This document shows positions 4,413 to 24,072 of a DNA stretch of 64,000 nt, piece by piece. A model generated the notes under the pieces. The model was given only the letters and a program-made list of their open reading frames with translations. It ran no database searches and had not been told where the DNA came from. This DNA comes from an uncultured Myxococcales bacterium (GTDB taxonomy: Bacteria; Myxococcota_A; SURF-8; CAYNVS01). The position numbers were made by a program, and so were the translations under genes. Position 1 is the stretch's first letter; every line of letters begins with the position of its first letter. The DNA lies in NCBI GenBank assembly GCA_964400725.1, contig CAYNVS010000005.1:8632-72631 (forward strand). The letters are read 5' to 3'.

Positions 4413-4847
4413 ATGCAGGTTACTCTCGAACAAGCCGTTAGAAACGCCATAATGTCGGAGGAAAACGCCCGAAGATTTTACGAGCGGCTTTCGCGTTTTG
4501 TCGAAAACGAAGACGCGAAGCGTTTTTTCGTAAAAATGTCGGAAGAAGAGGAACGACACGCGGTCGCGCTGGCTAATTTGGCGCGGGACAAAACCTTGCG
4601 GCTGCCCAAAAACATCGACGTAGCGAGCGCCTTTTTAGAGCCTCGCCCCGGAACGGCCGACGCGAAGATTGAAACGCTGGAAGGCGCAATCGAGCTTGCC
4701 ATCGCGGCGGAAATCAACGCGCAGCTTTATTACGAGGCTCTCGCATCGACCGTCGAAGGAGAAGCTCAACTTTTTTTCGAGCGGATGGCGGAGGCGGAGT
4801 CGAGCCATTACGATATTCTAAACGACTATAAAAACCGACTGAAATAA
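4413..4847 (+). CDS. ferritin-like diiron protein, rubrerythrin family without rubredoxin domain, paralog 2
   Basis: Start moved to ATG 4413 (MQVTLEQAVRNAIMSEENARRFYERL), which has GGAAAGGA upstream. ExxH motifs EERH and ESSH. The N-terminal consensus LxxAVRNAI is shared with the 3832 ORF. Confidence 0.6.
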   Translation: MQVTLEQAVRNAIMSEENARRFYERLSRFVENEDAKRFFVKMSEEEERHAVALANLARDKTLRLPKNIDVASAFLEPRPGTADAKIETLEGAIELAIAAEINAQLYYEALASTVEGEAQLFFERMAEAESSHYDILNDYKNRLK

Positions 4848-5027
4848 CTTTCAATCTTTCGCCCCCCGCCAATCGCCGGCGCGAAATAACGCTAAATTAG
4901 GGAGCGGAAGCCGCGCGGACTGACCGCGGCGCCGAGAAGACGGCGTTAGAATTCGGCGTTTTTTTTTAGCGATTAACTCTTGCGCAAAAGAATAAATCAA
5001 ATTATAAATTATTTACGAGGTGTTTCA

Positions 5028-5723
5028 ATGATTACCGGAATGAACCACAACATAATGCACAACGGCAATTTGTACCATATACAAACGGAGGAATCCGGAC
5101 GAAAACATCCGCATGTAATCAGCCACCTCTTTCTCGACGGAGTAATTCTCGCGACCGAAAAAACGAGCTACGAGGAGCATCTGGCTCTTTCGGACGACGA
5201 TTTGCTTCCAATTCTTAAAAATCTAATGCAGCGGTCTCACCGCGCGATGATAAACCGGCTTGTTACAGGCGGTTACGATCACCTAAGCCAGACGATAAAA
5301 AGACCCGTTCAGCCCAAACCGGAGGTCGTTCTGGCCAACCTAGAAAAGACCGAGGACGAAACGACTCTTCAGTACGCCAAAGAGGCTGAAAACACCGTGG
5401 CCCGAAAAATCGCCGAGGAAACTACCAAACATACGGTCCGCCTGCAGACCGATGAGCCTTCTAAAGAGGAGCCTAAAGAAGAGAGGGCTCCGTCCGAAGA
5501 AAAAAAGCCGGCGGAAAGAGCCGGAACTTCTCAAAAAATCGCAGAAATAAGAACGCGCGCGGTTACGATGCCGGTCGTGAAAAGAACCGCTCCGGTGGAG
5601 CAGGACGAAGATTCGCTCGATTTGTATATGATATTCGGCGCTTCCAAAAAAGTGCCGCGCAACAGGGAAATATTTTCCCTTCGCGAAAAAATAGCCGCTC
5701 TTCTCGGCATTCCCAAAGAGTAA
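5028..5723 (+). CDS. hypothetical protein with E/K-rich disordered C-terminal half
   Basis: ATG 5028 (MITGMNHNIMH) is preceded by GAGGTG. No recognisable motifs. Confidence 0.4.
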   Translation: MITGMNHNIMHNGNLYHIQTEESGRKHPHVISHLFLDGVILATEKTSYEEHLALSDDDLLPILKNLMQRSHRAMINRLVTGGYDHLSQTIKRPVQPKPEVVLANLEKTEDETTLQYAKEAENTVARKIAEETTKHTVRLQTDEPSKEEPKEERAPSEEKKPAERAGTSQKIAEIRTRAVTMPVVKRTAPVEQDEDSLDLYMIFGASKKVPRNREIFSLREKIAALLGIPKE

Positions 5724-5765
5724 TAACCGCTTTGGCGTTTAATTTAACATCGAGGCAAATAAAAT

Positions 5766-5996
5766 ATGCAAGGAACCGAATTATTTACCGCTTATTTAGT
5801 TACATTCGGGTGGGCCGTTCTCGGTTCGATAAGCATGGCCGTCGGATTGCTGCTTATGCTTTTAGTTTTTACGAAAGCCACCCCGCAAATCGACGAATGG
5901 AAGGAGCTAAAACAAGGAAACGTAGCGGTCGCGATAGTTTTGGCCGCAGTAATAATCGCATGCGCAATGGTCGTATCCGCCATGGTGCGTCCCTAA
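5766..5996 (+). CDS. DUF350-family small membrane protein
   Basis: 76 aa with two TM helices flanking the conserved KQGNVAVAIVLAA segment typical of DUF350/YjfL proteins. Confidence 0.6.
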   Translation: MQGTELFTAYLVTFGWAVLGSISMAVGLLLMLLVFTKATPQIDEWKELKQGNVAVAIVLAAVIIACAMVVSAMVRP

Positions 5997-6051
5997 CGGT
6001 CGGTTTGACCCCTCGACTTTTGACGCGCATTGCCGGCGCGTCGTTCGTTAA

Positions 6052-8379
6052 ATGAAAATCCGAAAAAAAATACGCGCGCGAGGCGTCGTGCAAGGAGTGG
6101 GAATGAGGCCGAACGTAAAAAAAATCGCCGACGCGCTCGGCCTTTTCGGCTTCGTCAAAAACGATAAATCGGGCGTTGAAATTGAGGTCGAGGGAGAAGA
6201 ACGCGCCGTTGAAGAGTTCGAGAGGCGCGTAATTTCCGACGCTCCGCCTTCCGCTAAAATCGACGAAACGATTTCGTCGCGGCTGCCTTATTTCGGCTAC
6301 GAGCGTTTCTCGATTGAAAAAAGCGGCTTAGACGCGGGCAAAAGCGTAAGCGTGCCGGTCGATTTGCCTACGTGCGGCGATTGCAAGGCCGAAATGCTGT
6401 CGGCGTCGGACAGACGCCGCGGTTACGCCTTTATAAACTGCACAAATTGCGGGCCTAGGTTTACGATAATAAAATCGCAGCCTTACGACCGGCCTGCGAC
6501 GACGATGTCTCGCTTCGAGATGTGCCCTCAATGCCGCGCCGAATACGAAGACGCCTCCGACAGACGATTTCACGCGCAGCCTATCGCATGCCCGACTTGC
6601 GGCCCGACGCTTACTTTAATGGACGCGCGCGGCGCGGTTATTGAATGCGGCGACCCGGTCGGACGCGTTATTGACGAAATAATAAAAGGCAAAATCGTCG
6701 CGATAAAAGGAATCGGCGGATTTCATCTAGCCTGCGACGCGCGCAACGATGACGCTATAGCGGCGCTGCGCGCGCGCAAACGCAGGGACGAGCGTCCGTT
6801 TGCCGTAATGTTTAGGAACGCGACGGAAATAAAAAAAGCCGCGCACGTTTCGCCGCAGGAAGAAAAGCTGCTCCTCTCGCTCCGCGCGCCGATAGTTATT
6901 TTAAAGCGCAAAACGCCTTTTCCCTTTCCCGAATCGGTTTGCGCCGGTCTCCCGACGATCGGGGCGTTTCTGCCGTACGCGCCCCTTCATACGCTTTTAT
7001 TCGAGAGCGAAAACTCGCCCGAAGGAATGGCGCTGGTTATGACCAGCTGCAACGTCCACGACGAGCCGATTGTCTATATCGACTCATTCGATTCAAAGAG
7101 GCTTGGGGAATTGGCCGATTTAATTCTTACGCACAACCGCCCAATTCTCGTCCGCTGCGACGATTCCGTCGCCGCGGTTTATTCGGGAGAGGAAACGGTA
7201 TTACGCCGCGCGCGCGGCTACGTTCCGCAGTCGCTTCGTTTTGCCGCTCCGTTTAAAAAAACGGTTCTCGCGGTCGGCGCCGAGTTGAAAAATACGGTTT
7301 GCCTTTGCTTCGAGGAGCATGCGGTATTGAGCCAGCACGTCGGCGATTTGCAGAACGTCGAAACGTTCGACGCCTTCCTTGAGACGATCGGACACTTAGA
7401 GGGGCTCTTCGAGACGCGGCCTGAACTTTTAGTCCGCGACGCGCATCCCGATTTCTTGTCGAGCCGATACGCGGCAGAGCGCGCCGAAAAGGAAGGGCTG
7501 CAAATAATTTCGCTGCAACACCACGCGGCGCACGCGCTTTCCTGCATCGCGGAAAACGGTCTGTTTGAAAAAAGCTGCCTATGCCTGACCTTCGACGGAA
7601 CCGGACTTGGCTCGGACGGCGCGGTTTGGGGCGGAGAAATTTTCGAGGCGACGCCGGATAAAATAAAACGCGCCGGGCATATCGAGTATTTCCCTCAGCC
7701 GTTCGGCGATAAGAGCGCCAGACTCCCTTGGACGACCGCGCTGTGCATGGTTCGCCGTTTTGCGCCCGAAATCCGGCCGCCCGACTCGGTAGCGCGTTAC
7801 GCGCAAAGCGGCGCGGGCAAAATTCTAGACGAAACGCTTAAGCGGGGAGCCGGCAAAATGCCGCGCTCAAGCTCTATGGGGCGCTTGTTCGACGCGGTTT
7901 CCGCGCTGCTGGACGTTAATACCGAAGCCTCTTACGAGGCGCAAGCGGCGATAGCGCTTGAAAGCGTTTCCTTGCCGGACGTAGGGCTTGACGACGCGTA
8001 CGACATGCCGGTCGAGAGCGAAGGCGGCTTATTCGTCGCGAGAATTGCGCCGTTGATTAAGGGAATCATCGCCGACGCGGCGCGCGGCGCGGACGTTTCG
8101 GAAGCCGGAGGCAGGTTTCACGCCGCGGTAGTTTCTTCGTTTTCCTCAATGGCCGAGGCTTTGAGGGAAAAAAGCGGCATTAATAATATTGTGTTGTCCG
8201 GCGGATGTTTTTTAAATAGAATACTCGCCGAGAGATTTACCGCCGAATTGAAAAAACGCGGCTTCGACGTTTACGCCCATCGAACGGTTCCGCCCGGAGA
8301 CGGCGGCGTCTCGCTGGGTCAGGCGTATTACGCATGGAGATTGCAAAATGTGCATGGCTATACCTATGAAAGTTACTGA
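6052..8379 (+). CDS. hypF: [NiFe]-hydrogenase maturation carbamoyltransferase HypF
   Basis: Acylphosphatase-like N-terminus (VQGVGMRP). Two CxxC zinc-finger pairs (CGDCKAE...CTNCGPRF; CPQCRAEY...CPTCGP). YrdC-like and Kae1-like C-terminal domains. 775 aa. Confidence 0.93.
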   Translation: MKIRKKIRARGVVQGVGMRPNVKKIADALGLFGFVKNDKSGVEIEVEGEERAVEEFERRVISDAPPSAKIDETISSRLPYFGYERFSIEKSGLDAGKSVSVPVDLPTCGDCKAEMLSASDRRRGYAFINCTNCGPRFTIIKSQPYDRPATTMSRFEMCPQCRAEYEDASDRRFHAQPIACPTCGPTLTLMDARGAVIECGDPVGRVIDEIIKGKIVAIKGIGGFHLACDARNDDAIAALRARKRRDERPFAVMFRNATEIKKAAHVSPQEEKLLLSLRAPIVILKRKTPFPFPESVCAGLPTIGAFLPYAPLHTLLFESENSPEGMALVMTSCNVHDEPIVYIDSFDSKRLGELADLILTHNRPILVRCDDSVAAVYSGEETVLRRARGYVPQSLRFAAPFKKTVLAVGAELKNTVCLCFEEHAVLSQHVGDLQNVETFDAFLETIGHLEGLFETRPELLVRDAHPDFLSSRYAAERAEKEGLQIISLQHHAAHALSCIAENGLFEKSCLCLTFDGTGLGSDGAVWGGEIFEATPDKIKRAGHIEYFPQPFGDKSARLPWTTALCMVRRFAPEIRPPDSVARYAQSGAGKILDETLKRGAGKMPRSSSMGRLFDAVSALLDVNTEASYEAQAAIALESVSLPDVGLDDAYDMPVESEGGLFVARIAPLIKGIIADAARGADVSEAGGRFHAAVVSSFSSMAEALREKSGINNIVLSGGCFLNRILAERFTAELKKRGFDVYAHRTVPPGDGGVSLGQAYYAWRLQNVHGYTYESY

Positions 8380-12747: not shown

Positions 12748-14007
12748 CTACTTGTTTTCAACGAAAGTAATCGTCAGCAGATAAATCTGCGTTCCTTTTT
12801 TACTGGTCTGTCCCGACAGCCACGTCGTATCCGTCATATCGAGCGGATTGGTGTAATTCGCCAGTAAAAAGGCATGCGCGTCGATGCGGCGGACGGCCAT
12901 GAAAGCGTTGTCGCCGCAGCCCGGCAAATCAAATACTTTTTCTACTTTGCGGGCGTCGCGGTTGATTTTATACAGCGCGCTCCCCTTGGGGCGCAGCGAA
13001 TAATCGACCAAATACTTGCTTTTTTGCTCGTCGAACGTCAACTCGCTTTTTCCTTGGTCGTAGGGGCCGCCTACGTCCCGGCGCGCGGCGAGGTAAATAT
13101 CGTTTCCGTGCCGAAACATCTCCGGCGAGTCGTAACGGTTTGGATCGCTTTTAGGCGAACATTCCCACTCCGAAAGAGCGTTTTTAGGCGCAAAGCAAAC
13201 GTGCGAACCGAAACCGGTCGCGTCGCCGTCCTCGTTGCGGGTAACGGCCCAAAGGTTTCCTTCGGCGTCGAACTCGAACGCGACTTCCGACACGCCCCCC
13301 TTGTAAACGTAATCCTTGCCGTTTACCTTTGTAAAGTTCTCGCCGTCTTCCGACTCTTTAAAATAAACTTCAATCTCCGAAGTTCCCGTCTCGTAATGGT
13401 TTCCTTTATAGGAAGTCATATAAACCCTGCCGTTGCGGACTTTTATGTCCCACGGAACTTCGCCGGCGTCAACCGCAAGCTCCGGCGCGCTCCAATCGCC
13501 GAGAGAGGCTCGCTTCACGCGCCACATCCCTTTAGGCTCGAAGGTAAACATGTCCGTTCCCGCCTCGAAGAAATACAGCCATATCCGGCCTTTGTAAGCC
13601 AGAAAGCGCGGCTCGCGCACGTCGGCGTCAACCGCTATTTCGCTCTCGAACTCCCACGTGGCGCCTTGGTCGAGGGATGAGGCGATTAACATTCGCGTAT
13701 ATTCGGAGGCGAAGTGATTGGGAGCGGTGCGCCACGCCATAAAAAGGCGGCCGTCGAAAAAGATAATATCGACGTTGTTGTTGGAGGCTTCGAGTTTGAT
13801 GGACGAGGGCAGCCCGGCGGAGGGAACGACCCAGCGGGGGGCGGAGGCTTGGGGCGTATACGTCTTATGATCGTCCGTAAAGTAATCGCCGGGGTCGTCG
13901 GATGGCACTTCTCCCGGCGCATCCGCGGAAGACGAGCCAGACGAACAACCGGTTAATAAGCAAAGCTCGGCGGCGGCGGCCAATAAAACGATAGCGATTA
14001 CGCGCAT
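12748..14007 (-). CDS. BNR/Asp-box repeat lipoprotein (sialidase-like beta-propeller)
   Basis: Lipobox LLTGCSSGSSS. Asp-box motifs SLDQGATWEF and SEDGENFTK. Confidence 0.55.
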   Translation of the reverse strand: MRVIAIVLLAAAAELCLLTGCSSGSSSADAPGEVPSDDPGDYFTDDHKTYTPQASAPRWVVPSAGLPSSIKLEASNNNVDIIFFDGRLFMAWRTAPNHFASEYTRMLIASSLDQGATWEFESEIAVDADVREPRFLAYKGRIWLYFFEAGTDMFTFEPKGMWRVKRASLGDWSAPELAVDAGEVPWDIKVRNGRVYMTSYKGNHYETGTSEIEVYFKESEDGENFTKVNGKDYVYKGGVSEVAFEFDAEGNLWAVTRNEDGDATGFGSHVCFAPKNALSEWECSPKSDPNRYDSPEMFRHGNDIYLAARRDVGGPYDQGKSELTFDEQKSKYLVDYSLRPKGSALYKINRDARKVEKVFDLPGCGDNAFMAVRRIDAHAFLLANYTNPLDMTDTTWLSGQTSKKGTQIYLLTITFVENK

Positions 14008-14057: not shown

Positions 14058-14837
14058 CTATTTAAATTTTCCAAAATAGCCGTCGATTTCAGGTCTTAAT
14101 TCAATGCCGGCCATTTCAAAGCAATCAAGCAATTCGTCGTAAGTATTTTGCCCGCCCAGAAAATCCCAGAATTCGCGCCCGACCATCAATTCGCCGTCAA
14201 AATCGAGCATGCCTTTTAACGTCCATCGTTCGTATGGTTCCGGCTCGTAAGGATTGTAAGGAATAGCAATGCAGGACTGAACTTTTGCGGCTGGATATTC
14301 CGTTAAATAAAGCGCCGCCCACTCAAGCAGCGTGCGTTTAAAATCCTTGAAATTGCTCACGTTCGGTGTTGCCGTTTTTAAATCAAACATGTAAACCGTT
14401 CCGTTTTTGCTTTTTAAAAACAAATCAACTTTTACGGTTTTCAAAGCGTTTTTCTGACCGCTCTTACAAAATTTTCTAATTCTTTCAATTTCTTCCAATT
14501 TGTTAGGAGCGCTGTTTTTGCTTGTTGATAAATGATTTATAATACGTTGAATTTCTTTTTGCGCGTCTTCGTAAATAGCGTTTGGCAATTTATATTGTTT
14601 TTCCGCAGCTTCAAAAGTTGTTTTCGCAATCGCAACCGCTACCGGTTCATATATTGAGGTTCCGAATGTTGTATTGAGCGATTGTATAAAAGAAAATAAA
14701 GCCATTCTATCTTTTCCTAAAAGCCTGTAATGGAAAGGCATAGAATTGGTTTCCGGAGTATAGTTTTTGAATTTTTCTCTGAGAACGCTTGTAATGATAT
14801 TCTTGATTTCGATTTTTTGGTTAGAAGAAAAGGGCAT
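14058..14837 (-). CDS. type II restriction endonuclease candidate (PD-(D/E)xK fold)
   Basis: Low-GC gene immediately downstream of the methyltransferase (taaATG junction). The putative catalytic motif is VDLFLKSKNGTVYMFDLK, i.e. D...DxK. Confidence 0.5.
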   Translation of the reverse strand: MPFSSNQKIEIKNIITSVLREKFKNYTPETNSMPFHYRLLGKDRMALFSFIQSLNTTFGTSIYEPVAVAIAKTTFEAAEKQYKLPNAIYEDAQKEIQRIINHLSTSKNSAPNKLEEIERIRKFCKSGQKNALKTVKVDLFLKSKNGTVYMFDLKTATPNVSNFKDFKRTLLEWAALYLTEYPAAKVQSCIAIPYNPYEPEPYERWTLKGMLDFDGELMVGREFWDFLGGQNTYDELLDCFEMAGIELRPEIDGYFGKFK

Positions 14838-15213
14838 TTATTTTTCCTTTAGATGAAAAATAATTTCGGCATAGGCGGTAGATCTGTCCTTTTCGACGCG
14901 GTTTAATACCGGCCTCTTGAATCGCTCGACAATTTTCATTCCCGATTTTTCCGCAATTAGCGGATAAAGATTAAATTTATCGTTGGCTACCAAAAAAACA
15001 TCATAATTATCTTGAAGATATTTTTTGCAATTATTTAAAACCGAGGATATTCCAGCCGCATACGCTTCCTTGGCGGCTTTTGTCTGTCCGTTTAAAAGAC
15101 GTCCTATTTCTTGTTCGTCTTTTCTTTCAAATCCAAATATTTCATACGCGTAAGCGTGCTGCTCGTGGTAATCAATTACCCCGACATATGGAGGACTGGA
15201 GAAAATGCCCTTA
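14838..15213 (-). CDS. DNA methyltransferase C-terminal catalytic segment (motif IV SPPY) in +1 frame relative to the upstream segment
   Basis: Translation KKKKIKGIFSSPPYVGVIDYHEQHAYAYEIFG... shows SPPY (motif IV), typical of N6-adenine/N4-cytosine MTases. The segment has no start codon of its own. It opens right after an in-frame stop inside the A8 tract and ends at a taa directly abutting the REase ATG. Confidence 0.6.
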
Positions 15214-16440
15214 ATCTTTTTTTTCTTTTATAAGTTCAGCCAATTTGGCGTTTTTTTGTTCGACTTCGGCTATTAAATCAACGGTAGAGCTGTCCGCCGC
15301 CAAACAAATTTGGAATGTATCCGTTCTTAATTTATCAAATTCAATAATTCTTTTTATGGAATCGTTCGAATATCTTATCCACCAGTCTAGAATTGAGAAC
15401 AACGGTTTGCATATTTTGCCGTGTTTCTTGCAGTAATATGTTCGAGTTACAGGTTCCTTTAAAGTGCCTAAATCGGCGTGAGTCGTAGCCCTGCACGACC
15501 TAGCGGTGCGGCTTAAAATAACCGCTAAAACTTTTTTAAGGTTTTTATCCTCAACGTTTTTAATTTCATTAAAAACAAAGTCGATTTCGTTTCTAACCGG
15601 CAGTAAGTACCATGTCGCCAGAAAAGAGTCGTTTTCTTTTTTGTATATTTCCAACTTGTATTCTTCAACCAAAGAATAGTATATAGGAAGAAATTCATTC
15701 TCACATCGCGTCGAATACTCGCCCTCTTCAATTTCTTTCAAATTGATTTTACGTCTATAATCGGGAGACGGAAAATATTTCTCGTTAAATTTATCAAGTT
15801 CGCATTGCAGTCTCTTTTCAAAAGCGGCGTTTATATTGTTTTTATTAAATTCAATTAATTTAACCGTTATCTGATTGATTATTCTGTTTAGTCTGGCAAC
15901 GTCATGTCGTTCTATTTTTACGTTTGAAATCATAGCGTTAAAGGCCGAAATATCCGCTCCTACCGCATGAATTCCCAATTCATTTGCCTGCACAAGCGTG
16001 GTTCCGCTTCCGGCAAAAGGATCTAAAATAATATCGCCTTTTGTAAAATATATAGTCTTTTTATAGTCGTCGACGCGCGAGTCCAGAAAATATTCCACTA
16101 ATTGCGGAATGAATTTACCTTTATATGGATGGATACGATGGACGTGTTTAGTTCGTTCAGATTCAGAATATTCCGAAAATGATAATTTCCAATTTAAATC
16201 TTCGCCCAGCGCTTTTTTCCAATCGCATTCGTTTTTAATTTGGTCGTAATAACTTTTCAGCTCATTAATATCTACGCAGGTCGAGCCGTTAAATGAATAT
16301 TTTTTTACTTTGCCGTATTGCAGCAAATAAGAAATATTTGAAATCGAAACCGGACGATTATTATATTGCGTCGCCCAAACGCTTGCTTCTTTCAGCTTTA
16401 CAAGACTTGCGTCTTTGTCTTCGGAAGTTCTGAAAACCAT
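15211..16440 (-). CDS. DNA methyltransferase N-terminal segment (motif X/I DPFAGSGTT plus TRD), alpha-class organisation; interrupted by frameshift
   Basis: HPYKGKFIPQLVEYFL...ILDPFAGSGTTLVQANELGIHAVGADIS gives the AdoMet-binding motif I block. About 270 aa of variable TRD follows. The ORF ends ...AELIKEKKD at the A8 run, with the SPPY segment in the next frame. Confidence 0.7.
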   Translation of the reverse strand: MVFRTSEDKDASLVKLKEASVWATQYNNRPVSISNISYLLQYGKVKKYSFNGSTCVDINELKSYYDQIKNECDWKKALGEDLNWKLSFSEYSESERTKHVHRIHPYKGKFIPQLVEYFLDSRVDDYKKTIYFTKGDIILDPFAGSGTTLVQANELGIHAVGADISAFNAMISNVKIERHDVARLNRIINQITVKLIEFNKNNINAAFEKRLQCELDKFNEKYFPSPDYRRKINLKEIEEGEYSTRCENEFLPIYYSLVEEYKLEIYKKENDSFLATWYLLPVRNEIDFVFNEIKNVEDKNLKKVLAVILSRTARSCRATTHADLGTLKEPVTRTYYCKKHGKICKPLFSILDWWIRYSNDSIKRIIEFDKLRTDTFQICLAADSSTVDLIAEVEQKNAKLAELIKEKKD

Positions 16441-18797: not shown

Positions 18798-20510
18798 TCA
18801 GTCGGCGAGCAGCTTTTTAAGGCTGGTGAGAATATTCAAAGGCGTAAAATCCTTGGCGCGCTCGCTCTTTTCAATAATGTAGGTAATTATCTCTTTGGTT
18901 TTGTCAAGAGAATCGTTGATGACTATGTAATCGAACTTAGCGTACTGCCTAATTTCGGCCTTAGCGATGGAAAGCCTTCTCTCAATCTCTTTGGGGTCGT
19001 CGGTTTTGCGCTCGCGCAGGCGGCGGGCGAGCTCTTCGTACGAAGGCGGCAGGATGAAAATAAGCTCCGCGTTGGGGAAGCGCTTGCGTATCCCGTCGGC
19101 GCCCTGAACGTCTATGTCCAGCACGGCGTTTTTACCGGCGTTGAGTATATCGTTGACCGACCGCCAAGAAGTTCCGTAATAGTGAAGCCCGTACACGAAC
19201 GCGTGCTCCGCAAATTCGTCGTTCTCGACCATTTTTTTAAAGGTCGTCTCGTCGACAAAGTGATACTCCCGTCCGTTTTGCTCGTTGCCGCGCGGCTTGC
19301 GCGTGGTGTGGCTTATCGAAAGCGAGAAATCGGGAAATCGCTCAACGATGAAGTTGCAAATTGTGGACTTCCCCGCGCCCGACGGGGCGGATACGACTAG
19401 AACTCGCGGAGGGGGAAGTTTATCGTCAATGGTAAAGTCATCTGAGTTGGACTCGTGTGAAATTTTATTTGCAATGTTAGAATCATCTTGATCAATCATC
19501 GAAGGCTCTTCATCCTGACTAGGAAGATATTTTAACAAATTATAGATTTCTTTATGTTCTCTGGGCATGCAAGATCGGGAGTCGTTACAGATATAAGGCT
19601 CAATAATCCCAAGCTCAGAAGGAAGTTGGTCTCTAATTTTTCTTAAATCATTTTGAAATTCTTCATCCTTGATTTGCATTGGATCTGGGTTTCGCCATTT
19701 AAAAAGTTTCACATTTAACTCTGTTTCCCAATGATTTGGTCTAATGGGATTAGAGTAAGTGACCCAAATAATAGGATAAGGGAAATCATTCCAAACTCCT
19801 TTAAGTTTTTCATAGCCAACAATTTTACCTTTAATAGCACAGGGAATACTTTTTTCACCAAGTAATTGAGCTAAATCTAGAGAGATTACCATTAATTCCG
19901 TATAAGAATATTTTGAAATCCTAAAGCCTATGTCAATTTCTGGGCCAATATAATCAATAACTTTATTTTCGCCTTCATTGCCGGCACTTAATGATAACTC
20001 AATTTCTCGATTTCTAATTGGAAAACCTGCTGTCCAGCCCGCACCTTTTAGCCGCAAACTTGGTTTGGAAATACCCTCAATAGTTTTTAAAAAACATTCA
20101 GTAATATTTGTTATCTCTTCACGGTTGTCTACAGCGTAGGTGTAAAGTAACTCATCGCCCAATATTTTCCAGATCCTTCCTTTTTCAAGCAATTTTTTTT
20201 CTGTTTTTCTAAGATGTTGTTTAAACTGACTATTAAACTGCTTAAAAGTTGTTTCTATGACAGTTTGCCAATTATAAGTCTCTTTGGTGATGTTTGCTAA
20301 TATATGTCCTATACCACTTTTATTATCTAAATTTTTATATAAACAATCGCTTGGAGATATATTGTTCGCCTCTAGGTAGGATAGGACAATGTCTTTCCTT
20401 TCCTTATATATTTTTAGAAGGCGTTCATGGTTAAATACGGATTTTAAAGCGGTCGAATTTTCTATATCAACACTTAGAAACAGCCTAAATGTCGGTTTTA
20501 AAGCTTGCAT
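18798..20510 (-). CDS. gmk: chimeric protein: novel low-GC N-terminal region (aa 1-370, weak nucleotidyl-cyclase-like D...GD...R motifs) fused to guanylate kinase (aa 375-570)
   Basis: C-terminus VLVVSAPSGAGKSTICNF...HTTRKPRGNEQNGREYHFV...YGTSW...LDIDVQG is canonical Gmk encoded in GC-rich DNA. The N-terminal ~1.1 kb is conspicuously AT-rich and encodes FRLFLSVDIENSTAL...WKILGDELLYTYAV...IDYIGPEIDIGFRISKYS. It is one continuous ORF. Confidence 0.7.
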   Translation of the reverse strand: MQALKPTFRLFLSVDIENSTALKSVFNHERLLKIYKERKDIVLSYLEANNISPSDCLYKNLDNKSGIGHILANITKETYNWQTVIETTFKQFNSQFKQHLRKTEKKLLEKGRIWKILGDELLYTYAVDNREEITNITECFLKTIEGISKPSLRLKGAGWTAGFPIRNREIELSLSAGNEGENKVIDYIGPEIDIGFRISKYSYTELMVISLDLAQLLGEKSIPCAIKGKIVGYEKLKGVWNDFPYPIIWVTYSNPIRPNHWETELNVKLFKWRNPDPMQIKDEEFQNDLRKIRDQLPSELGIIEPYICNDSRSCMPREHKEIYNLLKYLPSQDEEPSMIDQDDSNIANKISHESNSDDFTIDDKLPPPRVLVVSAPSGAGKSTICNFIVERFPDFSLSISHTTRKPRGNEQNGREYHFVDETTFKKMVENDEFAEHAFVYGLHYYGTSWRSVNDILNAGKNAVLDIDVQGADGIRKRFPNAELIFILPPSYEELARRLRERKTDDPKEIERRLSIAKAEIRQYAKFDYIVINDSLDKTKEIITYIIEKSERAKDFTPLNILTSLKKLLAD

Positions 20511-20518
20511 TATCGGGG

Positions 20519-21040
20519 TTAATCGTTAAAAAGTGTTTTTGATCTTATTTCTATTGCATGGACAGAAACCCTAAAAAATGAGGACAGCAAACTTTTATCC
20601 GCAGAAAGTTCTTTGTATTTTTTTTCAAAAACAATTTTAGGCATCAAAAAGGCAGCGGCGAATCTGTTAGCTTGCCATTCCTCTTTATTTGATCCTTGCC
20701 GATAGAATGTTATTGGTTCTTCTTCGCCTGTTTGAGCGTCATAATGTAAAAAATAATGACCTAACTCATGCGCAATGGTAAAATTATCTCTTAGAGAAGT
20801 ATCAAAAGGGACTAATAAAATCGAGAAATCGTTTTTCTTTCGAATAATTAATGACGCCGGAGAAAAAATATTATCCGACAAAGACTCAATCTTTCCACCG
20901 AGAAGATTTACAACAGTATTTAGAAATGGTCTAACCTCATCTTCATACTTATTCGCATCTTTTTCAAAATGCATTCTAGCTTTGCCAGCTAAAGCCTCTA
21001 TTTTTTCATTACTGAAAAAAAGTAGTTTTTTTCTACCCAT
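20519..21040 (-). CDS. ImmA/IrrE-family (DUF955) zinc metallopeptidase
   Basis: HEXXH-type signature FTIAHELGHYFLHYDAQ. Start set at the second ATG (MGRKKLLFF), which is preceded by GAGAGGAGAG. Low-GC gene 8 nt upstream of the chimeric gmk gene. Confidence 0.65.
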   Translation of the reverse strand: MGRKKLLFFSNEKIEALAGKARMHFEKDANKYEDEVRPFLNTVVNLLGGKIESLSDNIFSPASLIIRKKNDFSILLVPFDTSLRDNFTIAHELGHYFLHYDAQTGEEEPITFYRQGSNKEEWQANRFAAAFLMPKIVFEKKYKELSADKSLLSSFFRVSVHAIEIRSKTLFND

Positions 21041-21170
21041 ATTAGCTCTCCTCTCAACAAACACACAATAATATTAAAAAGCTTAACCAGCTTCTTGTCA
21101 AGCGATATTATAAAATTATAACAAATTAAATAATATTAAGCCAATATTAAGGCTTGTTTAACAAGATAAA

Positions 21171-22793
21171 TTACTTGATATTCCACGTTTTCCAATCTCC
21201 GGGGGGCGGCATGACCGGATTTTCCTTGAAAGCCCTTACCACCGCCTCGAAGACGGTAACGCCCATGTCTATCGACGGGCTCTTTTTCAGCATGTAATAT
21301 CCGTCGCCGCCGTTAGCCAAAAAAGTTATGGTTGCGACGGAGTACGTTTTATCGACCTCCAGCGGACGGCCTCCTATCATCACGCGGTAAATTTTGCCGT
21401 CTTTTGCGTAAACGCGCGCCCCCGCAAGCTGCAAAAAGCCTCCTTTGAGCTTCGCTTCCTTGTCGAGCCTCGAAAGGGACTCCGAAAGTATCATCAGCAG
21501 TTTGTCGCCGGTCATTTCAAGCCGCAGTATTTGGTTGGGAAAAGGCAGCGCGGAAACGATGTCGAGGTAACGCACGTCTCCTTTTTCAATCGGAGCGCGA
21601 ATCGCTCCGGAATTTATAAACCCGACGTCCGCCTTCCCTTCTTTTCTTATTATCTCGGCTATCATGGTTCCCAGCTCGAAACTTCCCGCCTCGCCGCCGT
21701 GATCGTAATTTAAAGCAAGGTCTTTCGTCAGCTCGCCCGCCTTTTGCGGCATCGAATTTTTCGCCAGCGAAACGAATTTCTCGACTATTATTTCAACCTG
21801 CGGGTCTTTTTCAATTTTCTCGGTTACAAATATCTCGCGCGCTTCTTCCACGTAAGAAGAGCCGCCTTCAAGAATAATTTTAATCTTTCCAACGATTCCT
21901 CCGTGCGCCTGAGCCTGCGCGACGAATATTCCGCGCCCCTTGGGCGGCGTGATTAGTTTGTGCGTGTGTCCGCCGACAACGCCCAATATGGGAATGGGCG
22001 TATTCGTTTTGGAGAGCTTCTCCGCAAGCGCAAAGTCTTCCTCGTCTCCCATGTGCGAAACGATTAAGACGTAATCGTGAGTCTCCGCAAGCGTAGGCAG
22101 CAAAGAGTCAAGCGTTTCCATCGGATCGGCGAAAGCTAGTCCTTCTACGTTTTTCTCGTCCGTCAACAGCGGCGTCTGAGCGTTGGCAATGCCGACGAGA
22201 GCGATTTTCTTTCCGCCTTTCGTAAAAAAGCTGGCGTAGGGCGCGAAAAGCGGCTTTCGCGTTCCTTCGTATAAAATGTTCGCCGCGATAATCTTAAACT
22301 CCGCGCCGCGAGCGAGCTGTAAAAGGCGCTCCTTGCCGTAATCGAACTCGTGGTTGCCCACGGTCATTACTTCCAGCCCTACCGCGTCCATCGCCTTAAA
22401 TTCCGCCATCCCTTTGGTAAAAAGAGACTGCGGAGTCCCTTGCATAACGTCTCCGGCGGCTATAAAAAGCGCGTCGCATCCCAAAGAATCGGCTTCCGCC
22501 TTCTCTGAGTTGATTACCGTTTTAATGCGGGACGCTCCTCCGCGGTAACTTCCGGCTCCCGCGCCGGTAGGGGTAATATGGCAGTGAAAGTCGTTGATGT
22601 GAAGAATTACAAGACATTGTTTGGAGTTGTCGGAAACTAAAGAAGGAGCCTGCCCGCACGAAAAAAATACCGCCGCCGAAACGGCTATTAAAACAAGCGC
22701 CAACTCAAACGCAAAAAAGTTCGGTTTGCCTCTTTTTATTACGCTTCCGCCCCCAGCCGCCGGCTCGTTCGCCGATAAAAACATTTTATTCAT
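21171..22793 (-). CDS. bifunctional metallophosphatase / 5'-nucleotidase (UshA family), secreted
   Basis: LHINDFHCHI and GNHEFDYG metallophosphoesterase motifs, N-terminal TM/signal segment, and a C-terminal 5'-nucleotidase domain. Confidence 0.85.
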   Translation of the reverse strand: MNKMFLSANEPAAGGGSVIKRGKPNFFAFELALVLIAVSAAVFFSCGQAPSLVSDNSKQCLVILHINDFHCHITPTGAGAGSYRGGASRIKTVINSEKAEADSLGCDALFIAAGDVMQGTPQSLFTKGMAEFKAMDAVGLEVMTVGNHEFDYGKERLLQLARGAEFKIIAANILYEGTRKPLFAPYASFFTKGGKKIALVGIANAQTPLLTDEKNVEGLAFADPMETLDSLLPTLAETHDYVLIVSHMGDEEDFALAEKLSKTNTPIPILGVVGGHTHKLITPPKGRGIFVAQAQAHGGIVGKIKIILEGGSSYVEEAREIFVTEKIEKDPQVEIIVEKFVSLAKNSMPQKAGELTKDLALNYDHGGEAGSFELGTMIAEIIRKEGKADVGFINSGAIRAPIEKGDVRYLDIVSALPFPNQILRLEMTGDKLLMILSESLSRLDKEAKLKGGFLQLAGARVYAKDGKIYRVMIGGRPLEVDKTYSVATITFLANGGDGYYMLKKSPSIDMGVTVFEAVVRAFKENPVMPPPGDWKTWNIK

Positions 22794-23994: not shown

Positions 23995-24072
23995 TGGAGG
24001 GAACGCTCGGAATTGAACCGAGAACCTTCGGGGCCACAACCCGACGCTCTAACCAGGTTGAGCTACGTTCCC
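23995..24072 (-). tRNA. tRNA-His (anticodon GTG), CCA encoded, no encoded G-1
   Basis: Manual fold: acceptor GGGAACG/CGTTCCC, D-arm GCTC-AACCTGGTTA-GAGC, anticodon stem TCGGG/CCCGA with loop TTGTGGC, variable loop AGGTT, T-arm CTCGG-TTCAATT-CCGAG, discriminator T, then CCA. Confidence 0.8.

Follow-up and report, generated by a model that had tools for sequence, protein, structure and literature searches.

What is the protein that has become joined to the guanylate kinase (Gmk) of an uncultured Myxococcales bacterium, and how did the two come together? The question is raised by the window, i.e., the whole stretch of 64,000 nucleotides analysed here (contig CAYNVS010000005.1), in which a single open reading frame (ORF) links an N-terminal region without any recognised domain to a guanylate kinase. 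A preliminary description, made from the sequence alone, had tentatively viewed this ORF as a cyclase-like signalling domain fused to a nucleotide kinase serving as an unprecedented effector. Our analysis leads to a different answer: we consider it probable, with moderate confidence, that a mobile two-gene cassette, coding for an M78 peptidase and a protein with the predicted fold of class III nucleotidyl cyclases, inserted beside gmk and was fused to it in frame, and that the cassette constitutes a toxin-antitoxin-like or abortive-infection pair.

The cyclase-like domain and its conserved residues

Searches with residues 1-360 of the fusion recovered no sequence matches in Pfam, NCBIfam or among solved structures, and Pfam, NCBIfam and PADLOC searches with the fusion protein returned only matches to the Gmk/P-loop portion along with two weak PADLOC matches at E ~8e-4. 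The AlphaFold2 model built from a 37-sequence alignment (mean predicted local distance difference test score, pLDDT, 88; predicted template modelling score 0.85; disorder only at residues 338-365) presents the palm fold of the cyclase-homology domain (CHD), with its β-α-β-β-α-β core. A Foldseek search of the PDB with this model retrieved class III adenylyl or guanylyl cyclases as all of its top 50 hits (E ~5e-8, probability 1.0), with target-normalised template modelling scores reaching 0.78. The cyclase-like palm that had been suspected from the sequence is thereby recovered as a palm in the prediction. Structure-comparison values are highest for the CHDs of Rv1900c (15.2), CyaB (14.8), Cya2 (14.5) and mammalian and other class III enzymes (12-14), followed by the Pycsar uridylate and cytidylate cyclases (11.2-12.1), GGDEF domains (~8-9.4), Panoptes mCpol (7.8) and Cas10 (7.7). 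As the class III values exceed those of GGDEF, mCpol and Cas10, the model strongly supports the assignment of the N-terminal domain specifically as a CHD, beyond a generic palm. A search of the BFVD structures yielded distant matches to giant-virus cyclase domains only.

Class III cyclases possess two metal-binding aspartates, located on β1 and at the turn between β2 and β3, a lysine/aspartate pair that specifies adenine, a ribose-orienting asparagine and a transition-state arginine; at the substrate-specifying positions lysine with aspartate selects ATP, and glutamate with cysteine or glycine selects GTP. The three motifs noticed earlier in the sequence (Table 1) all fall within the cyclase-like part of the fusion, residues 1-337, and are found at their expected places. 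Beyond D15 in the first motif, K115 of the second corresponds to the purine-specifying lysine and D119 to the second metal-binding aspartate, which is followed by an invariant glutamate, E120. In the third motif, D186 occupies the position of the adenine-specifying aspartate of adenylyl cyclase C2 domains, D193 that of the catalytic asparagine and R197 that of the transition-state arginine. An LKG at residues 236-238 corresponds to the conserved C-terminal (V/I)KGK motif, and all residues of the catalytic set reside on one chain, like in the homodimeric bacterial cyclases.

An hhalign comparison with five genuine CHD sequences, taken from PDB alignments, placed K115-x-x-G-D119 on the K-x-x-G-D of these enzymes and D186...G189...D193...R197 on their (Y)D-I-W-G-x-x-V-N-x-A-x-R segment, in a weak alignment of 2.4% probability and E 0.019. 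The +7 (D to N/D) and +11 (D to R) spacings equal those of the C2-domain sequences of adenylyl cyclase types 8 and 9. Judged by spacing and predicted fold, and with the alignment weak, the pair K115/D186 appears to match the substrate-specifying Lys/Asp of ATP-type cyclases. The separation of D15 from D119, 104 residues as against ~44 in Pseudomonas aeruginosa CyaB, reflects an insertion modelled as helices; the preliminary description had recognised that this spacing was too long, although the excess is ~60 rather than ~70 residues. The glutamate directly downstream of the second metal aspartate (residues 118-120; window 20151-20159, minus strand) forms a G-D-E-L/F signature recalling the GG(D/E)EF of diguanylate cyclases.

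A search with residues 1-358 as the query recovered 160 homologues at E <= 1e-3, the best 120 of which are standalone proteins of 243-420 residues, annotated as hypothetical, without a Pfam domain and with a top identity of 37%. An exhaustive profile search extended the family to 2,081 clusters at 50% identity with E <= 1e-3 (1,876 at E <= 1e-10), with lengths of 230-470 residues among the best 150 matches listed. In the 37-member alignment the residues F11, S13, V14, D15, S19, K23, K115, G118, D119, E120, W159, G162, F163, P164, N167, D186, G189, D193, G195, F196 and R197 are invariant, and these columns coincide with the previously noticed motifs.

A larger count across 249 diverse homologues found D15 in 241 of 241 ungapped sequences and G118-D119-E120 in 246 of 246; K115 (240 K and 4 R) and D186 (245 D and 4 E) are 96-98% conserved, and the C-terminal K237 is represented by 228 K and 13 R. 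As for the transition-state pair, the arginine is present (R197, 247/249) and the asparagine position is held by an invariant aspartate (D193, 249/249). The motifs are hence near-invariant, including the metal-binding aspartates and the arginine on whose retention in homologues the earlier assignment had been made to depend, and by these alignments their conservation lies far past chance expectation.

This conservation bears on whether the cyclase-like protein might be a catalytically silent, nucleotide-binding pseudo-enzyme, which acts as a sensor or scaffold and issues no nucleotide signal. Since both metal aspartates, the Lys/Asp pair, the transition-state arginine and the C-terminal lysine are 92-100% conserved in ~250 divergent sequences, a pattern from which catalysis would be expected and not binding alone, we regard a pseudo-enzyme as unlikely. 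Rather, because the domain retains what appear to be all the catalytic residues of ATP-type class III cyclases that act as homodimers, an NTP (nucleoside triphosphate) is probably its substrate, with ATP the likeliest, and a cyclic or related nucleotide its product.

The M78 peptidase partner and the distribution of the pair

The gene adjoining the fusion ORF on its upstream side, which the preliminary description did not mention, encodes a zinc metallopeptidase of the M78 family with a GGAGAG ribosome-binding site; its mechanical ORF begins at the GTG at 21064, and gene callers give the product of 173 residues. The peptidase matches PF06114 (E 1.8e-17) and, as its best PADLOC model, capP (1.5e-20). 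We examined 83 related loci from many phyla, including those of Desulfomonile, Syntrophales, Planctomycetes, Leptospira, Treponema, Bradyrhizobium, Sphingomonas, Geminicoccus and Verrucomicrobia, with neighbours inspected within 6 kb for the presence of Gmk. The great majority of these contain an M78 gene that immediately precedes the cyclase-like gene on the same strand, in many cases overlapping it, with no M78 match in 8 of the 83, and across 66 partner peptidases the HELGH..H motif and the downstream glutamate are invariant. A Gmk was found within 6 kb in none of the 83. The constant partner of the family is, then, the upstream M78 peptidase and not Gmk. In a metagenome-assembled genome of an uncultured alphaproteobacterium (CAVPVB010000024.1; 5443-7080 of locus L030, plus strand) the two proteins are joined in a single ORF of 545 residues with both catalytic sets intact, a Rosetta-stone hint that M78 and the cyclase-like protein might physically interact. 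All-against-all clustering of neighbours, along with Pfam and PADLOC searches on 143 flanking ORFs, uncovered no conserved third gene in the 83 loci, the gene contexts being heterogeneous, and a regular-expression search found no cassettes for binding cyclic nucleoside monophosphates (cNMPs).

The pair is patchily distributed, its presence differing even between contigs that are 99.8% identical, and it is plasmid-borne in Leptospira, Sphingomonas, Tistrella and Mycolicibacterium. Further, it is found in the temperate Leptospira phage LE1, as gp81 (M78) and gp80, and in the Clostridioides difficile phages phiCD27, phiC2, CDKM9, phiCDHM19 and phiCD508. In phiCD27 the two genes, gp38 (M78) and gp37, occupy a classical moron position, flanked by the lysis genes on one side and the integrase on the other; the repressor/M78 switch belonging to the phage itself (gp44/gp43) is a separate one. 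In PHROGs the family corresponds to phrog_18024 and phrog_6174, both of unknown function. The pair is thus a mobile, compact two-gene operon with a small regulator upstream and an enzyme downstream, as in type II-like toxin-antitoxin and abortive-infection modules. The C. difficile phage members (528 residues; 4734-6320 of locus L095, plus strand, for phiCD27 gp37, also in phiC2, CDKM9 and phiCDHM19 gp43) bear extra stretches of ~90 N-terminal and ~240 C-terminal residues without a Pfam domain; phiCDHM19 gp43 is annotated as a 'putative Nudix hydrolase', and Pfam finds no domain in it.

M78 peptidases of such a length are well known as anti-repressor proteases (PMC2701414; CapP preprint), and the pair could accordingly be a regulatory switch of the ImmA/ImmR or CapP/CapH type, and not a toxin or defence module, in which the cyclase-like protein senses a cue and, by way of its nucleotide product or of direct contact, activates M78 to cleave a repressor encoded elsewhere, for instance in prophage induction. 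The pair of phage LE1 adjoins a gene for a CI-like repressor, and Makarova et al. noted COG2856 operons in both phiC2 and LE1 (PMC2701414). However, no gene for a helix-turn-helix (HTH) protein accompanies the pair in the window, nor is one conserved in the 83 loci; phiCD27 already has a repressor and M78 pair at its integrase, and the M78 linked to the cyclase is an additional copy that lies in its moron region; and isolated chromosomal cassettes such as the present one have no obvious target to regulate. On these grounds we assign such a switch only a low probability.

The 143 bacterial neighbours include the defence genes DruA (Druantia), MADS, type IIG and type II restriction-modification, KwaA (Kiwa), RdrB (RADAR), DrmMI (DISARM) and WYL. 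In three loci, from Sphingomonas, Asticcacaulis and Methylomicrobium, a small membrane protein resembling PycTM or 2TM effectors is adjacent to the pair with no other cyclase nearby, being convergent with it in L053 and L058 and upstream on the same strand in L074; these proteins, going by gene position and sequence match, may be an optional effector. Together with the moron positions and the defence-gene neighbours, they make a conflict-system flavour plausible, if unproven.

Insertion of the cassette beside gmk

The C-terminal part of the fusion is a bona fide guanylate kinase, the host's own housekeeping gene product. Its residues 369-548 match PF00625 (E 1e-47) and TIGR03263 (221 bits as against a curated cut-off of 160), the latter over profile positions 2-179 of 180, and the GAGKST P-loop is present. 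Additionally, gmk has host-like GC content and is followed by a spoT/relA gene, in the same order as in relatives.

The island that holds the peptidase gene and the cyclase-like part is far poorer in GC than its flanks (Table 1), and the corresponding empty site is preserved in two cases. The first is a contig, L084, with a standalone Gmk of 206 residues (P0121, MENKRVLVV...), which begins MENKRVLVVSAPSG and is 100% identical to the Gmk of the fusion from residue 5 on. Bases 1-40 of this contig match window 21222-21183 and bases 138-1075 match window 19405-18468 at 99.8% identity, with 97 bp between the two blocks. The second, an 86%-identical relative (L099/L100), has an empty site with the same two breakpoints (21183 and 19405) and a gmk starting MEEKRVLVV. 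The 97 bp that were replaced held the end of the 5'-nucleotidase gene (its final three codons and the stop), the spacer between the two genes, in which the promoter and ribosome-binding site of gmk lay, and gmk codons 1-4. The reading frame is kept across the join, which falls within Arg5 of Gmk (Arg369 in fusion numbering). Given the low GC content and the empty sites with identical breakpoints in the 99.8%- and 86%-identical contigs, the island is the insertion of a horizontally acquired two-gene cassette, and this insertion created the fusion.

No integrase or convincing terminal repeats were found for the island. At its upstream edge (window 21171-21182, minus strand) the end of the 5'-nucleotidase was rewritten from ALK-stop to NIK-stop with its length kept; both versions end in AAGTAA, which may represent micro-homology or a recombination trace from a donor with the same neighbour. 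At the other edge, the last ~15 nt of the insert (window 19407-19421, minus strand), CTTCCCCCTCCGCG, encode LPPP and stand out from the remainder of the 33%-GC island by being rich in GC; they might be filler DNA or derive from the gmk N-terminus of a donor. The promoter-like region brought in by the island also contains TTGACA-N17-TTTAAT, as read by eye, along with small repeats and palindromes. Homologues of the cyclase-like protein possess a similar variable acidic C-terminal tail in the 37-sequence alignment. In the fusion, the tail opens with Met338, the sole in-frame ATG upstream of the P-loop, which is preceded by a weak, poorly spaced Shine-Dalgarno-like sequence only; inspection of the fusion sequence between this residue and the P-loop revealed no in-frame ATG, GTG or TTG.

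These observations bear on how the fusion itself is to be understood. The view first envisaged, in which a signalling enzyme (the cyclase-like domain) was purposely joined to its effector (Gmk) in a cyclic-nucleotide antiphage system, draws on the fact that both halves act on nucleotides and on a continuous ORF that recurs in three assemblies with a clean in-frame junction and both flanking genes intact. However, this architecture is peculiar to the present population: the homologues listed are of 230-470 residues and no Gmk lies within 6 kb at any of the 83 loci, the linker is nothing other than the usual disordered tail of the family, and Gmk, with its host GC and its synteny with spoT, shows 100% identity to the standalone allele on a contig that itself matches the window at 99.8%. 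With the fusion traceable to the insertion of a low-GC cassette, we reject a purpose-built effector as very unlikely; the fusion and the cyclase-type domain of the original proposal stand, whereas the kinase is a recently captured housekeeping gene product and not an effector.

An error of sequencing or assembly, with gmk in reality separate, might be suspected from the apparently metagenomic derivation of the window and from the absence of the junction pattern from exact-match scans of metagenome_contigs (probably a matter of collection coverage). It is exceedingly improbable, because the exact 570-residue protein and DNA 100% identical across both junctions recur in assemblies made by different pipelines (the window, Logan SRR6476076 and JGI 3300022666; also a 143-kb contig), and because two chimeric joins would have to be postulated, each so precise that the ORFs on either side stayed intact.

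A second acquired cassette of low GC (37%) lies just downstream of spoT (window 14058-16440, minus strand) and encodes a type II restriction endonuclease of the TdeIII family (259 residues; PF09520, E 1e-88) and an N6/N4 DNA methyltransferase (409 residues; PF01555), so that two acquired cassettes bracket the gmk-spoT pair. Between this restriction-modification cassette and an acyl-CoA-dehydrogenase-like gene is a gene for a 419-residue protein that has no match in Pfam and whose N-terminus resembles that of a lipoprotein (LLTGCSSG; window 12748-14007, minus strand). The only structured RNA detected in the 64-kb window by Rfam and tRNA scans is a tRNA-His (GTG) at 23995-24072 on the minus strand.

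Table 1. Coordinates of the features discussed (window positions unless a locus is named)
Feature	Position	Strand	Description
Fusion ORF	18798..20510	-	570 aa: cyclase-like protein, linker, Gmk
CHD-like class III catalytic domain	19755..20492	-	aa 7-252; ~60-aa helical insertion between beta1/alpha1 and beta2
Motif 1, FLSVDIENSTAL	20445..20480	-	aa 11-22; metal-binding Asp D15, plus S19/T20/K23
Motif 2, WKILGDELLYTYAV	20130..20171	-	aa 114-127; includes WKILGDELLY
GFPIRN	20010-20027	-	aa 162-167
Motif 3, IDYIGPEIDIGFRISKYS	19905-19958	-	aa 185-202
Motif 3, IDYIGPEIDIGFR	19905..19958	-	carries D186, D193, R197
Family-specific C-terminal helical region	19500..19754	-	aa 253-337; conserved PY(I) and PxxH motifs
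Acidic disordered tail, now Gmk linker	19407..19499	-	aa 338-368; pLDDT <50 at aa 338-365
Host housekeeping Gmk moiety, ancestral Arg5 to end	18801..19406	-	aa 369-570; PF00625, TIGR03263
M78 (ImmA/IrrE/CapP-like) zinc metallopeptidase	20519..21040	-	173 aa from ATG at 21040; HELGH..H and conserved Glu
Promoter-like region from island	21090..21144	-	TTGGCT-18-TATAAT with upstream TG; consensus scan, match only
Acquired island	19406..21182	.	1,777 bp, 33% GC vs 52% in flanks; peptidase gene and cyclase-like part
Small membrane protein, L053	7088-7630	-	180-185 aa; PADLOC PycTM/CBASS '2TM effector', full length, E down to 6e-40 (all three loci)
Small membrane protein, L058	7112-7660	-	as for L053
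Small membrane protein, L074	4826-5383	+	as for L053

Proposed function and comparison with known systems

Under the explanation we favour, a mobile cassette comprising its own promoter-like region, the M78 gene and the cyclase-like gene landed between the 5'-nucleotidase gene and gmk, removing the promoter, ribosome-binding site and first four codons of the latter and joining the cyclase tail in frame to Arg5 of Gmk. Guanylate kinase would now be made from the cassette transcript as a C-terminal passenger of the cyclase-like protein; alternatively, it might be supplied by proteolytic release or, less likely, by a start at the internal Met338. Only an in-frame insertion would leave a working gmk, and the clean, ORF-preserving junction would then be what selection for such a gene leaves behind. 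The cyclase could be a growth-arresting or signalling enzyme that either makes a toxic or signalling nucleotide or drains NTP, which the M78 peptidase restrains or switches on by cleavage or binding. Relatives of the peptidase respond to DNA damage or single-stranded DNA by cutting a partner near its C-terminus (CapP preprint). In a comparable manner, the present version may answer a phage or DNA-damage cue, like ImmA, IrrE and CapP, by cutting the cyclase-like protein in its conserved C-terminal region or in the tail, and in this genome such a cut would also free Gmk. In a wider formulation, M78 and the cryptic cyclase may represent a new, widespread class of nucleotide-based conflict systems, present on chromosomes, plasmids and temperate phages, with the protease as an obligate partner, either as the trigger that sets free a toxic or ATP-draining cyclase upon infection or as a product-activated effector, and with the present cassette rendered nearly unlosable by having taken control of where transcription and translation of the normally essential gmk begin; this we put forward tentatively, as a possibility of somewhat less than even probability.

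Several observations weigh against the proposed function or the steps leading to it. With respect to the enzyme, the assignment as a cyclase derives from the predicted structure and the correspondence of motifs, with no significant sequence-profile link: PF00211, for which a profile search had been proposed, gave no match to the window protein or to 37 family members even at E <= 1, the hhalign alignment described above fell short of significance, and neither the family profile searched against PDB sequences nor phmmer returned any match. Further, the invariant aspartate at the position of the catalytic asparagine suggests that the chemistry may deviate from cyclic AMP synthesis. With respect to the role in conflict, most loci lie among housekeeping genes, the defence-island signal being modest and judged by inspection; a receptor or effector is absent in 77 of 80 loci; no PADLOC model covers the pair; and a full-text literature search found no description of an M78-cyclase pair. 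With respect to this locus, wholesale destruction of the cyclase-like protein by the peptidase would also lose the fused Gmk, which constrains any antitoxin-by-degradation here; a second gmk was not found within the 64-kb window. Finally, the three fusion-bearing assemblies are all 100% identical and might stem from a single population or study.

If the proposal holds, a family of ~2,000 clusters presently labelled 'hypothetical protein' would be recognised as class III nucleotidyl cyclases, a relationship visible only by structure comparison and motif correspondence, and would add another branch, next to Pycsar, to the conflict systems built on cyclases. It would also introduce a protease-cyclase control logic that is so far undescribed for nucleotide-signalling immunity or toxin-antitoxin systems. 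Because medically relevant temperate phages carry the pair (phiCD27 and phiC2 of C. difficile, LE1 of Leptospira), it is accessible to experiment. The window itself offers a natural, datable case in which an essential housekeeping gene was captured by a mobile cassette through fusion in frame. With filled and empty alleles at hand, it is of use for understanding the origin of gene fusions and the entrenchment of selfish elements.

Compared with the class III CHDs (PF00211; Mycobacterium tuberculosis Rv1900c, P. aeruginosa CyaB, Synechocystis Cya2), the family has no significant sequence-profile similarity. It adds the ~60-residue helical insertion after helix 1, an invariant aspartate in place of the catalytic asparagine and an invariant glutamate (GDE), has its own 85-residue C-terminal region and acidic tail, and is partnered by an M78 peptidase instead of sensory domains. 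Pycsar couples the PycC cyclase to an effector with a cNMP-binding domain and transmembrane helices or a TIR domain. Such an effector gene is lacking from the island and from ~96% of the related loci, a PycTM/2TM-like neighbour being found at three; here the partner is instead a protease, Lys and Asp appear to occupy the specificity positions, as in purine-type enzymes, and the canonical purine cyclases are structurally nearer to this family than is PycC.

The upstream gene resembles the peptidases of CapP/CapH, ImmA/ImmR and IrrE/DdrO in belonging to the M78 family, with capP as its best PADLOC match, in its intact HExxH...E and in its approximately ImmA-like size. Unlike these protease-repressor switches, however, no HTH repressor is encoded alongside, the peptidase has neither the HTH-like nor the GAF domain known from CapP and IrrE, and M78 is paired with, and once fused to, an enzyme. 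In particular, although the peptidase is intact as in ImmA/ImmR, an XRE repressor is neither present in the island nor a conserved neighbour in the 83 loci. With regard to cyclic-oligonucleotide-based antiphage signalling systems (CBASS) carrying CapH/CapP, the island contains neither a CD-NTase nor an HTH gene, and the predicted fold of the cyclase is that of a CHD and not of Pol-beta.

An organisational parallel is offered by PanA-PanT of the Burkholderia prophage phi52237, in which PanT, a validated toxin without a recognisable domain that HHpred links to adenylate/guanylate cyclases, is neutralised by the upstream PanA, a DUF4065 Panacea protein, the module being located next to an integrase (Kurata et al. 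2022, PMC8832971). Both are two-gene modules found in prophages, with a small upstream protein and a downstream cyclase-like protein visible to remote methods only; they differ in that the neutraliser there is a DUF4065 Panacea protein and the partner here an M78 peptidase. Homology between the family and PanT was considered and rejected (hhalign probability 0.4%), making PanT an analogue and not a relative. Against the background of these systems, the novelty lies in the cassette family itself and in the capture of an essential gene.

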